Source: Escherichia phage phiWec188. From it: 64,000 nt of DNA. The notes beneath the pieces are model-generated. The model searched no databases and was not told the DNA's origin. It saw only the letters and a list, made by a program, of their open reading frames with translations. Positions 56,895 to 58,973 of the stretch are shown piece after piece; within the stretch, counting starts at the first letter, position 1; the number at the start of each line of letters is the position of its first letter. The translations under genes were made by a program, and so were the position numbers. The stretch lies in the sequence record LC739537.1; one strand, 5' to 3'.

Positions 56895-58973
56895 TTATCT
56901 TCGACGAGGGGCACTTACCGTAGTGAAATGCCTTGAGTTCATGTTACTGTACCCAGTAGGTGCATTTGTTGTTGCAGGTATTGCTACAGCCTTGTGTGCC
57001 GTCTCTTTCGCCAGAGTGTTGAAGCAAGATGCTGCGGCATCTGGAAGGTCATCTTTAAGCATTGCTGTAGATCGTTCACCGTTAAAAGATTCCAATTCTT
57101 TATAAAAGTGATTCAAAGTTTCAATGTTAGGAAATGAATCTTCCACGATATAAACAAAGCCGTTCTGACAGGCACTACTGAATGGCATGAAACGTTGGAG
57201 TTTCTTTTTGTTACCTGGCATTGCGTCCGGTTTAACAACGAAGCCTTCAACAATAAGTTTTTTAGCCGATTCCGTGTATTCGATGAGTCCAGCACCAGAC
57301 GGGTCTTTTGGAAGAACGATCTGAACATCCGGTCCATCAATCTTAGCTTGTTGGAGGATCAGGTTATCCCTGTCACCAGGTAAGCGTCGGAATCTTCCGA
57401 AAACTTTACTCTTCTCGTCTATAGCGTCGTAATCATAATCCCCGAAGATATAAATGTTCCCGTTTAGGTCTTTACCCATCTTAACAGATGCTGTATAGTC
57501 AGGATAACGATAACGTTCACTTGGAACGGATACAGCTTTATCCCATGCACGCATATACTTCATGTTGTTAGGAACATCTTTGTATTCTATCTTGTGAAGC
57601 CATTCACGTTGGAAGAATGATTCCTCTTGAATACGGGCAAACCAACAACCATCCAGAAGCTGTGCTCGCTTTATCGCTGTCTGCGATTTAAGAGAAGCCA
57701 GGTATTTCGGGTTAAGGCGAATCAGTTCAGGGTTATCAAAGATCGTACCGCCGATAAACACAAACGTTTGAGGTTCGATCGTAACAACCTCACCAGTGTT
57801 TGGGTTCTCCATGAAACAGTTTTCAGGATACTTCTCTTTAAGTTCCTCTGCTGTGTCGGCAAATACAGGCTCATCATTTACAATAATGAAGTAGGTTTGT
57901 TTACCACACATATCTTCACGAGGATAACCACCTTCGTCAAGGTAAGGTAACACCCAGTTCAGTACCCAACTATCCGCATCGGGGTTACAGGTACAAAGCA
58001 TGAAAGATGTTTCTGACTCGGAACGCATACGACCGAGAAGATAAAGCATCTCATACTGGGTGAAATGGGTGAGTTCGTCAAAACCGACCATACTGTACTG
58101 TGTACCCTGATGGTTAGTCTCGGCTGTAACGTTATCATTCTCCAGATGGTCAAACTTCAAAGTACCACCGTTAGTGGCCTCAAAGATAATGTCCATCGTA
58201 CTTTCTTTTACGTGCGGTTGTAAAGGCAGGTACAGACGTTTAGCTTCTGTAAACAAACCACCTGGCTTACGGTGTGCAGTGGTGTTCTTACGGAATAAGA
58301 TACCACCGAACAAAGGGTCTTTATAGGCAAACTTAAGAGCTTTTAGCAGTAGCAGACGAGACTTGCCGCTATTGCCAGTAACGAAGCAGTGATTGCCCCG
58401 TCTAAGGACAATATAGCTACTTGGAGTTTCAAAGCAATATTTTTTATCATCGGATGTAATAACCTCGTGTATTTTTAAATAAGTGTTTTGTTTGCCTGGG
58501 ATGTTAAACGGAACGCGCTTACCAAAAGGATCTTCAATGTATCCTTTCAGTGGTGCTCCTGCTTGTTGCAGAGCAATAAGATCTCCCACAGCAATCTCAA
58601 AATGTTTTTTGGATTTCTTTTTCTTGTAAAAGACGAAACGATGTTCCATACTCAATTCTTGGAACACTCCTGCACCGTTAGTGATTCGGTACAAGTTATC
58701 ATCTTTCATATCATATTCTACGAAGTAAGGCGTGACCAATTCTAAGCGTTTTCTCTTAGGATTATACTGATAGATATCTTCTCCGCTATATTGGCTTATT
58801 TGTTTCCAGCCGTCACGGGTAAGATACTCTGTTTCAGCAGATACACAACCTGCGGCACCACCGTAAATCATAACTTCCGGCATTAAATCCATTGCCAGGG
58901 TTTGTTTACCTGGTTGAGCTTTTACTTCGATATCAGCGCCAGCTAAACTGCCAGCCGCTTTTTTCTTAGCCAC
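56895..58973 (-). CDS. terL: terminase large subunit, intein-containing
   Basis: Walker B MVGFDELTHF; Walker A GAAG/SGKS split by ~159-aa Hint-like insertion; C-terminal nuclease-sized domain. Confidence 0.75.
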   Translation of the reverse strand: MAKKKAAGSLAGADIEVKAQPGKQTLAMDLMPEVMIYGGAAGCVSAETEYLTRDGWKQISQYSGEDIYQYNPKRKRLELVTPYFVEYDMKDDNLYRITNGAGVFQELSMEHRFVFYKKKKSKKHFEIAVGDLIALQQAGAPLKGYIEDPFGKRVPFNIPGKQNTYLKIHEVITSDDKKYCFETPSSYIVLRRGNHCFVTGNSGKSRLLLLKALKFAYKDPLFGGILFRKNTTAHRKPGGLFTEAKRLYLPLQPHVKESTMDIIFEATNGGTLKFDHLENDNVTAETNHQGTQYSMVGFDELTHFTQYEMLYLLGRMRSESETSFMLCTCNPDADSWVLNWVLPYLDEGGYPREDMCGKQTYFIIVNDEPVFADTAEELKEKYPENCFMENPNTGEVVTIEPQTFVFIGGTIFDNPELIRLNPKYLASLKSQTAIKRAQLLDGCWFARIQEESFFQREWLHKIEYKDVPNNMKYMRAWDKAVSVPSERYRYPDYTASVKMGKDLNGNIYIFGDYDYDAIDEKSKVFGRFRRLPGDRDNLILQQAKIDGPDVQIVLPKDPSGAGLIEYTESAKKLIVEGFVVKPDAMPGNKKKLQRFMPFSSACQNGFVYIVEDSFPNIETLNHFYKELESFNGERSTAMLKDDLPDAAASCFNTLAKETAHKAVAIPATTNAPTGYSNMNSRHFTTVSAPRRR
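58371..58847 (-). mobile_element. mini-intein inserted in terminase P-loop (boundaries approximate)
   Basis: N-terminal block CVSAETEYLTRDGW, block B-like SMEH, ends ...VTGN followed by Ser; excision recreates GGAAGSGKS Walker A. Confidence 0.55.

Follow-up and report, generated by a model that had tools for sequence, protein, structure and literature searches.

The Terminase Gene and Its Insert

The window analyzed here, a stretch of 64,000 nucleotides from Escherichia phage phiWec188 (LC739537.1), matches Escherichia phage phiWec190 (LC739539.1), a myovirus of ~150 kb belonging to the Stephanstirmvirinae, with 100% identity. On its minus strand lies the gene for the large terminase subunit, TerL, and the Walker A motif of this protein is split by an insert of 159 residues. 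We consider the insert to be a splicing-competent mini-intein, i.e., a HINT domain that lacks a homing endonuclease, and put the probability of this reading at roughly 0.87. As such, it is an unannotated intein of an already known kind, with a hybrid signature that is discussed below.

The TerL open reading frame (ORF) is 100% identical to that of phiWec190, and its copies in relatives are named terminase large subunit. The Pfam family Terminase_6N matches TerL residues 202–460 (E = 3.9e-17), starting at profile position 8, and a weak match to TIGR01630 covers residues 572–654. Judged by a Pfam match to Portal_Mu and by how near-identical relatives are annotated, the gene is flanked by spanin genes and a portal gene. 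Its ribosome-binding site (Table 1) is identical to the AGGAGG annotated for TerL in the phi92 record.

The insert accounts for ~23% of the TerL protein and is located between the fourth and fifth residues of the Walker A motif, GAAG↓SGKS. With arrows at its borders, the precursor reads ...MPEVMIYGGAAG↓CVSAETEYLTRDGW...RRGNHCFVTGN↓SGKSRLLLLKALK; the upstream flank ends in ...VMIYGGAAG↓, and the insert's C-terminal end with the start of the C-extein is ...YCFETPSSYIVLRRGNHCFVTGN↓SGKSRLLLLKALK. These borders are the ones proposed in a preliminary description of this DNA, and they proved to be exact; the strand, which it had left unstated, is the minus strand. The other features that it had named were recovered as well, i.e., a block A-like start, an S-x-x-H motif (S66-M-E-H69 in intein numbering), a terminal Asn followed by Ser, a missing penultimate His, the position of which is occupied by Gly158 in the end ...VTGN, and the lack of an endonuclease-sized insertion in an element of only 159 residues. 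Removal of the insert leaves 533 residues with GAAGSGKS, a canonical GxxxxGKS Walker A motif.

Table 1. Features of the TerL gene of phage phiWec188. Positions are those of the window; intein residues 1, 138, and 159 correspond to TerL C43, C180, and N201, respectively.
Feature	Position	Strand	Description and basis
TerL precursor ORF	56895..58973	minus	692 aa plus stop, GTG start, predicted 78.7 kDa; ORF list
Ribosome-binding site AGGAGG	58978..58983	minus	4 nt upstream of the TerL GTG; read directly
N-extein	58848..58973	minus	TerL aa 1–42, ending in ...IYGGAAG, the first Walker A half; translation, collinear with intein-free TerL N-termini
Predicted mini-intein	58371..58847	minus	TerL aa 43–201, 159 aa, 18.6 kDa, predicted HINT fold, without homing endonuclease; family search, 6ZGQ profile match, AlphaFold2, Foldseek
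C-extein	56895..58370	minus	TerL aa 202–692 plus stop; SGKS, the second Walker A half, then ATPase and nuclease domains; Terminase_6N from aa 202
Block A/N1	58806..58847	minus	CVSAETEYLTRDGW; Cys1 (TerL C43, nt 58845–58847), 149/149
Block B/N3	58626..58670	minus	GVFQELSMEHRFVFY; Ser66 (B:7), His69 (B:10), Arg70 (B:11), Phe71 (B:12)
Block F/C2	58404..58451	minus	DDKKYCFETPSSYIVL; Cys138 (F:4; TerL C180; nt 58434–58436), Pro142
Block G/C1 and residue +1	58368..58391	minus	HCFVTGN↓S; Thr157, Gly158, Asn159, Ser+1 (TerL S202)

Terminases Without the Insert

TerL was compared by tblastn with 50,697 phage records. At least 80% of its length is covered in 140 records, and the insert is present in each of them (140/140). 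More distant TerLs, i.e., those of the rV5-, FelixO1-, ICP1-, and PAK_P3-like phages, align only from TerL residue 202–220 onward. Three intein-free TerLs were read across the insertion site, and GGAAGSGKS/T is unbroken in all of them. The closest is the TerL of Aeromonas phage vB_AdhM_DL (55.6% identity over TerL 202–674), with the junction VMIYGGAAGSGKSRLLLIKALK, or ...VMIYGGAAGSGKSRLLLIKALKHAYQDP in a longer reading; the corresponding junctions are LIIGGAAGSGKSYLL in Klebsiella phage VLCpiM5b and TVFGGAAGSGKTWQG in Acinetobacter phage B09_Aci02-2. Thus, the junction predicted for spliced TerL is what intein-free homologs encode, and the comparison with relatives that the preliminary description had suggested speaks for its proposal. 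It had also envisaged that the 159 residues might recur in intein-free homologs as part of a conserved domain; they were found in none of these homologs.

Other interruptions are seen in TerL genes of related phages. In vB_AdhM_DL (OP820702.1), the gene at 2393–5292 is interrupted just ahead of Walker B, following ...EANHQGL, by ~1.4 kb containing an HNH_3 endonuclease ORF (3230–3922; Pfam E = 2.5e-9); this stretch resembles an intron or the insertion of a free-standing homing endonuclease. Metagenomic TerL fragments of 285–292 aa with the P-loop intein also exist (P0007 and P0186–P0190, of which only P0007 was read), and P0007 stops about where the TerL of vB_AdhM_DL breaks. The protein is encoded in two pieces in nepoznato, FKP3, and "Campylobacter phage A145"; an HNH endonuclease ORF is annotated at the break in the former two, whereas the A145 record is unannotated. 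Within this clade, TerL seems to be a mobile-element hotspot. In the record of Salmonella phage 41 (KR296695.1, flagged UNVERIFIED), the large terminase (1534–2994) is misannotated as a "CRISPR-associated protein" similar to Cas3.

A Family of P-Loop and RtcB Inteins

A first lead to homologs outside the terminases was the last row of the tblastn result, where residues 19–124 are aligned with the RtcB ligase from Corynebacterium phage Lederberg. RtcB, an enzyme unrelated to TerL, is a known intein host. The Lederberg protein reads GVDIG↓CVDADTEYLTPTGWKHI...YCFTVTTGFLVLRRSGNVFITGN↓CGM; its N-terminal block, CVDADTEYLTPTGW, and its C-terminal block, YCFTVTTGFLVLRRSGNVFITGN, which ends in ...VFITGN, are the same blocks as in the TerL insert, here placed around a larger insert. 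A word-indexed homology search yielded only 5 matches with the single sequence and 17 with a profile, all of them close or fragmentary, and members lacking Cys1 were not among them. An exhaustive phmmer search of the insert against 1.84 billion cluster representatives gave 649 matches at E ≤ 1e-3, including 81 at E ≤ 1e-10. Judged by this search and by the profile match to a solved intein described below, the intein features of the TerL insert are far beyond chance.

Conservation was counted over the best 151 sequences (150 from phmmer and one earlier match) in which both the N- and the C-terminal part of the query were matched. Most of them contain two matching stretches separated by ~150 extra residues, and the elements mostly measure 300–340 aa; 14 are minis of 140–180 aa. 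They start with C-V-D-x-D-T-E-Y-L...G-W, where Cys1 is found in all 149 aligned sequences and T6, E7, and W14 are nearly invariant. His B:10 and a Ser, Thr, or Cys at B:7 are present in 151/151 and Arg B:11 in 93/151, while B:12 is hydrophobic (Val, Phe, Met, Ile, or Leu; Cys in four cases) and Trp in none. The elements end with ...Y-C-F-x-V-P...R-R-N-x-x-I-F-I-T-G-N↓[S/C/T]. The Tyr-Cys-Phe of block F is conserved in 150, 151, and 146 sequences, respectively, its Cys being located at −21 from the C-terminus and followed four residues later by Pro in 134; the Arg-Arg pair is present in 149 and 134, and the terminal Thr/Ser-Gly-Asn in 150, 151, and 151 (Thr at G:5 in 122, Ser in 28). Residue +1 is Ser in 69, Cys in 45, and Thr in 37 members, and residue −1 is Gly in 127 of the 151.

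The tetrapeptides most commonly found downstream of the element are SGKS, SGKT, TGKT, CGKT, and TGKS, which places it at the P-loop, G↓[STC]GK[ST]. The sites are mostly of this type, in P-loop NTPases, or else located in RtcB. According to Pfam and NCBIfam, the hosts include SF2 helicases (ResIII/XPB-like), RecD2, the DnaX clamp loader, RecA, terminases, and RtcB. The RtcB-hosted members, with VGVDIG↓C...TGN↓CG, are numerous among the top matches. One of them, P0027, is matched at residues 325–691 by NCBIfam model NF052663, named "intein-containing RctB family protein", a range that includes the C-terminal part of the insert of P0027 (aa 72–381). Another terminase, P0040, has a 323-aa version of the element at the same site, AGGAAG↓...↓SGKT. 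Beyond its own clade, the best matches of the TerL intein are the helicases P0008 and P0009, not other terminases. Within the window, TerL is the only ORF recognized by the family hidden Markov model (HMM) when applied to all six-frame ORFs, and no Pfam intein domains were detected in the nine other ORFs of at least 500 aa.

Inside the TerL intein, an A-rich run, AAGAAAAAGAAATCCAAAAAAC (~58606–58629, minus strand), encodes the residues YKKKKSKK, and three metagenomic intein-bearing TerL copies (P0002–P0004) end or lose frame at this run, probably by homopolymer assembly errors. It is a slippery A-run inside an essential gene. An ORF of 85 aa with a TTG start on the opposite strand (58488–58745, plus) was considered as an endonuclease within the intein; no Pfam family matches it, and it is probably not a real gene.

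Predicted Fold and the AceL NrdHF Intein

A profile of the family was made from alignment A1, consisting of 15 mini members. It has one significant match among solved proteins, i.e., PDB 6ZGQ, the AceL NrdHF-1-1 intein (E = 1.2e-9). The AlphaFold2 model based on A1 (pLDDT 91.1, pTM 0.86) retrieves the same structure first when compared with the PDB by Foldseek (E = 2e-7, TM 0.70/0.76), and the hits at ranks 3–47 are all inteins, BIL domains, or hedgehog HINT domains, including the Prp8, gp41-1, DnaB, DnaE, RecA, and CDC21 inteins. The TerL insert is thus modeled as a HINT fold. Together, the intein-free junctions, the homology to recognized inteins including 6ZGQ, and the predicted fold support the mini-intein that the preliminary description had suspected.

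That description had also questioned the exact boundary and the splicing competence because of the ...VTGN end. This doubt has lost its ground, since all 151 representatives end in Gly-Asn followed by Ser, Cys, or Thr, and since AceL NrdHF, which splices, ends in Thr144-Gly145-Asn146. As the family and AceL NrdHF share TGN, the ...VTGN end is a lineage signature that is compatible with efficient splicing. Splicing of AceL NrdHF is near-quantitative within minutes, and the introduction of a penultimate His by the substitution G145H abolishes it (PMC7891396). Likewise, the Bethlehem gp51 intein of a mycobacteriophage has a penultimate Gly and splices completely, and a G-to-H substitution makes it slower (PMC5050341). 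More generally, the penultimate His is often missing in phage inteins (PMC5050341).

Distribution and Selection

DNA of the insert was found in 133 phage records with 75–100% identity, comprising Phapecoctavirus, Justusliebigvirus including phi92, Klebsiella relatives, and the phiWec group. In codon alignments of six TerL genes, the ratio of non-synonymous to synonymous substitution rates (dN/dS) was 0.03–0.07 for the intein and 0.04–0.07 for the extein, figures that are only rough, as the deeper pairs have dS values close to saturation. By these alignments, the intein appears to be under purifying selection as strong as that on the extein. Relative to phiWec179, the intein shows no non-synonymous changes at a dS of 0.24, and the synonymous divergence of the extein is about half of that (0.13). 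All catalytic residues are identical in the six divergent phages. The amino-acid identities of intein (0.84–0.87) and extein (0.84–0.92) track each other, which fits with vertical inheritance of an element that lacks an endonuclease, is no longer homing, and can be lost only by precise deletion. In this scenario, the element would be fixed and vertically inherited in Stephanstirmvirinae-type phages and kept only because loss of splicing would kill the phage. The GC content of the intein (38.6%) is lower than that of the extein (43.9%) and of the window (42.8%), which is a mild hint of foreign origin.

TerL-region DNA with 79–98% identity to the window is also found in records assigned to phages of other hosts, i.e., Pseudomonas phage PsgM04F (OR584014.1) and "Campylobacter phage" B15, A145, and A150 (MG065650.1, MG065645.1, and MG065639.1, respectively). 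These phages fall among the Stephanstirmvirinae coliphages, and their stated hosts look doubtful; contamination or mislabeling may be involved.

Proposed Splicing Pathway and Its Alternatives

In the proposed pathway, TerL would be made as a precursor with a broken P-loop, in which ATP binding should therefore be impossible. The intein would fold, excise itself as an 18.6-kDa polypeptide, and ligate Gly42 to Ser202, resulting in a terminase of 60.2 kDa and 533 aa with an intact GAAGSGKS P-loop; the tryptic peptide predicted for the junction is QTLAMDLMPEVMIYGGAAGSGK. By homology to AceL NrdHF, Ser66 and His69 would strain the Gly42-Cys43 bond. A thioester would then be formed on a cysteine, after which the N-extein would be transferred to the hydroxyl of Ser+1. 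Subsequently, Asn159 would cyclize, with Arg70 probably substituting for the missing penultimate His, and an O-to-N shift would yield the peptide bond. In AceL NrdHF, Arg69 contacts the carbonyl of the C-terminal scissile bond (PMC7891396).

Several points weigh against this reading. We infer splicing and its chemistry from the insertion, the homology, the fold, the conservation, and the boundaries of the element. On the structural side, the evidence consists of a prediction from an alignment of 15 sequences of the same family. The TerL intein has neither a penultimate His nor a block F His, and the selection analysis suffers from the saturation mentioned above. An HMM search, which the preliminary description had put forward as a check, came out negative with off-the-shelf models: the insert matches no intein model of Pfam or NCBIfam (Hint/Intein_splicing; TIGR01445/TIGR01443) even at E ≤ 1. 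Single-sequence phmmer of the insert against the PDB gave only noise, as did its C-terminal fragment of 39 aa. Lederberg RtcB and 10 family members behave similarly, as no curated intein model (E ≤ 0.01 to 1) matches them except for a weak LAGLIDADG_3 and the RtcB-specific NF052663. The silence of these models is a sensitivity gap and not a defining biological feature. Overall, we regard the mini-intein as real and very probably active.

The first step of the pathway deserves separate discussion. Cys1 and Cys138 (F:4) are both invariant in the family, and we therefore consider both to matter. The preliminary description had implied a standard class 1 intein. Its Cys1 stands, yet F:4 is Cys instead of the Asp of class 1 inteins, G:6 is Gly instead of His, and Cys F:4 and Thr G:5 are of the class 3 type, which makes the signature a hybrid one. 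Asp F:4 and the penultimate His are typical of class 1 but not obligatory (PMC5050341). Class 3 inteins, on the other hand, are defined by the absence of Cys, Ser, or Thr at position 1, and here Cys1 is invariant. Their Cys F:4 is found as Cys138, which equals C124 of AceL NrdHF by its C-x3-P spacing and its distance to the C-terminus, and their Thr G:5 as Thr157. Their Trp B:12 is replaced by Phe71, but AceL NrdHF, a proven class 3 intein, deviates here too, with Met70. Hence, the family fits neither textbook class cleanly, as it combines Cys1 of class 1 with Cys F:4 and Thr G:5 of class 3 and lacks Trp B:12.

We lean, by a little more than even odds, toward Cys138 as the residue that carries the acyl group and the N-extein, be it on its own or in a relay that follows Cys1. 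The main competitor, which is less probable but has to be taken seriously, is standard class 1 chemistry, in which Cys1 alone initiates splicing by an N-to-S acyl shift and Cys138 just replaces the Asp of block F as a helper. In typical class 3 inteins, residue 1 is dispensable, and 34 of the 37 WCT inteins have no nucleophile at this position (PMC2807308); if the same held here, one would not expect Cys1 to be invariant. The hydrophobic residues at B:12 are also as in class 1, and Hoffmann et al. described AceL NrdHF as more class 1-like at the equivalent position N3:12 (PMC7891396). Against standard class 1 chemistry stands that the class 3 signature positions are kept, with Cys F:4 in 151/151 and Thr or Ser at G:5 in 150/151. 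Furthermore, Cys124 is the obligate nucleophile of AceL NrdHF, the nearest characterized relative (PMC7891396), and the presence of Ser1 or Cys1 has a precedent in three WCT inteins (PMC2807308). What is left of the probability, beyond a Cys138-carried and a pure class 1 route, falls to other routes. Ser1- and Cys1-bearing WCT inteins reportedly use the class 3 route. The operational definition of class 3 by Hoffmann et al. (2020) requires that there is no N-terminal Cys, and inteins with Cys1 were left out (PMC7891396). Since this exclusion was deliberate, such inteins are not unknown to specialists.

If both cysteines were catalytic, the intein would be a variant outside class 1 and class 3 as defined, for example one with an acyl relay from Cys1 via Cys F:4 to Ser+1 or one with a redox lock between Cys1 and Cys F:4. 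A more far-reaching idea, to which we attach little credence, is that the TerL insert is the coliphage member of a large, apparently undescribed family (at least 649 representatives) that specializes in the P-loop site G↓[S/T/C]GK[S/T] of many NTPases, is invisible to Pfam and NCBIfam, and has both cysteines invariant. If true, the family could also be an evolutionary bridge between class 1 and class 3.

The redox lock leads to another alternative, in which the intein is conditional: splicing would be gated by a reversible disulfide between Cys1 and Cys138 or by another redox or metal signal, so that terminase activity would be confined to a suitable time or cell state. In 6ZGQ, the modeled thiol of C124 lies 3.0 Å from a carbonyl (PMC7891396), a class 3 DnaB intein reportedly splices in a redox-sensitive manner (PMC6195587), and Kelley et al. 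argued for tuning of splicing rates by phage inteins (PMC5050341). Nevertheless, nothing in the sequence demands regulation, the cytoplasm of E. coli is reducing, and AceL NrdHF splices in minutes across a wide range of conditions. We therefore regard gated splicing as unlikely.

Still less probable is a degenerate or domesticated HINT domain that does not splice, so that TerL works with the domain in place, or that is capable only of cleavage, as in a BIL domain. The missing endonuclease and penultimate His, the silent standard HMMs, and the BIL domains at Foldseek ranks 3–7 would all agree with such a decayed element. However, it is the Walker A loop itself that the insert splits, and cleavage alone would detach the first 42 residues with half of the P-loop. 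Moreover, Cys1, His69, Cys138, Asn159, and Ser+1 are invariant over the 133 phage copies and the 151 representatives. All catalytic positions are thus kept, which makes a purely structural insert unlikely, as it would not need them. BIL domains characteristically lack a nucleophile at position +1 (PMC4031507), whereas this residue is always Ser, Cys, or Thr here.

Finally, that the 477 nucleotides are an intron or an annotation or assembly artifact, and that the true TerL is encoded without them, has a negligible probability: the TerL genes of related phages are indeed interrupted at the DNA level by stretches with HNH endonuclease ORFs, but this insert is in frame, free of stops, and an exact multiple of three in length, shows protein-level conservation with mostly synonymous changes, has a predicted HINT fold, and is present in independent genomes from many laboratories.

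Annotation Status and Significance

No description of the TerL intein was found in the literature on coliphage, P-loop, and class 3 inteins, the phi92 genome paper being outside the scope of this survey. The intein is unmentioned in the records of phi92, phAPEC8, PaulScherrer, EmilieFrey, KP2025, and phiWec179, where TerL is a plain coding sequence (CDS), and it is absent from the NCBI, UniRef, and IMG names of the two 90% clusters. In the phiWec paper, TerL was used as a phylogenetic marker without comment, and the word "intein" does not occur in its full text. According to a paper from 2024, E. coli and coliphages are without reported inteins (PMC11162368). In the BASEL table, which was curated manually and for which the authors claim precise identification of inteins, none is listed for EmilieFrey, the TerL of which carries the insert. 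In EmilieFrey (MZ501063.1) and PaulScherrer (MZ501100.1), TerL is located at 676–2760 in both cases and contains the same intein of 158 aa in a plain CDS; the table lists two inteins for PaulScherrer, which may or may not include the one in TerL.

The intein has consequences for annotation, since phi92, phAPEC8, and more than 130 related coliphages that are therapeutic candidates list TerL as a plain protein of 691–694 aa, while the mature enzyme of these phages probably has 533–536 aa. TerL is also a standard marker in phage taxonomy, and ~23% of it is here the remnant of a mobile element. Intein censuses that are based on Pfam and NCBIfam models probably undercount, because these models missed every family member scanned. 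With Gly-1 and Ser+1, the element is an intein of small size and presumably undergoes splicing at 37°C in E. coli. It is a candidate ligation tool, as it is small and its closest characterized relative is fast and tolerant of exteins. In addition, it is naturally suited to testing which residue initiates splicing, Cys1 or the Cys of block F.

Other Genes of the Window

Pfam matches elsewhere in the window lie in the regions 15986–20457 (plus), 23504–31378 (minus), 35733–37808 (minus), and 55229–56812 (minus). The genes encode a primase-helicase (Toprim and DnaB_C), a family A DNA polymerase, a Mu-type portal protein, three tail-fiber or spike proteins (Tail_spike_N twice; collagen repeats; RCC1-like and Big_2), and a protein matching non-contractile tail sheath families (NCTSP_N, TIM-barrel_NCTSP, and Calx-beta). 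Neither Pfam nor the family HMM revealed an intein in any of these genes.

Comparison With Known Inteins

Inteins in terminase P-loops are well known from actinobacteriophages (PMC5050341). The TerL1-a and TerL1-b inteins of mycobacteriophages (Kelley et al., 2016, PMC5050341) resemble the one described here in that they reside inside the Walker A motif of a large phage terminase. They differ in having Terminase_1 hosts, the insertion site GK↓T or one residue off, and, in many cases, an endonuclease, whereas the TerL intein has a Terminase_6-type host and the site G↓SGKS, three residues upstream of that in mycobacteriophages. The only insertion in a Terminase_6 protein in the set of Kelley et al. 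is located in the C-motif (PMC5050341).

The canonical class 3 (WCT) inteins, such as MP-Be DnaB and Msm DnaBi1 (PMC2807308), share with the TerL intein Cys F:4, Thr G:5, an often Ser or Thr residue at +1, and the habitat, i.e., a phage or a helicase P-loop protein. In contrast to it, they contain Trp B:12, usually no nucleophile at residue 1, and a penultimate His (H340 in MP-Be), and the structure of Msm DnaBi1 (6BS8) appears only at Foldseek rank 33 (TM 0.45). The RtcB inteins (Lederberg gp59; NF052663) have the same N- and C-terminal blocks as the TerL intein but differ by an insertion of ~150 aa between the splicing halves, by Cys+1, and by a host that is not a P-loop protein; one of them, P0027, has a weak match to LAGLIDADG_3. 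Inteins have been proposed to spread from gene to gene via nucleotide-binding motifs that the genes have in common (bioRxiv 10.1101/2025.01.02.630785), and the host range of the family fits with this.

The closest counterpart is AceL NrdHF, for which the following residues have been described (PMC7891396): Ser65 (N3:7), His68, Arg69, and Met70 (N3:12); Cys124 (C2:4) without a C2 His; a kink at Pro128-Gly129; and the end Thr144-Gly145-Asn146 followed by Ser+1. It thus shares with the TerL intein Ser B:7, His B:10, Arg B:11, and a hydrophobic residue other than Trp at B:12, Cys F:4 with a Pro four residues on (C124/P128 versus Cys138/Pro142), the lack of a block F His, the T-G-N end, and Ser+1. 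Its phage-like metagenomic origin may be counted as shared, too. Unlike the TerL intein, which is contiguous and has Cys1, it has Ala1 as its first residue and occurs naturally as two parts of 98 and 48 aa around a GIY-YIG gene, and its host, the β subunit of ribonucleotide reductase (NrdHF), is not a P-loop protein. In the structural alignment, the two inteins are only ~17% identical.

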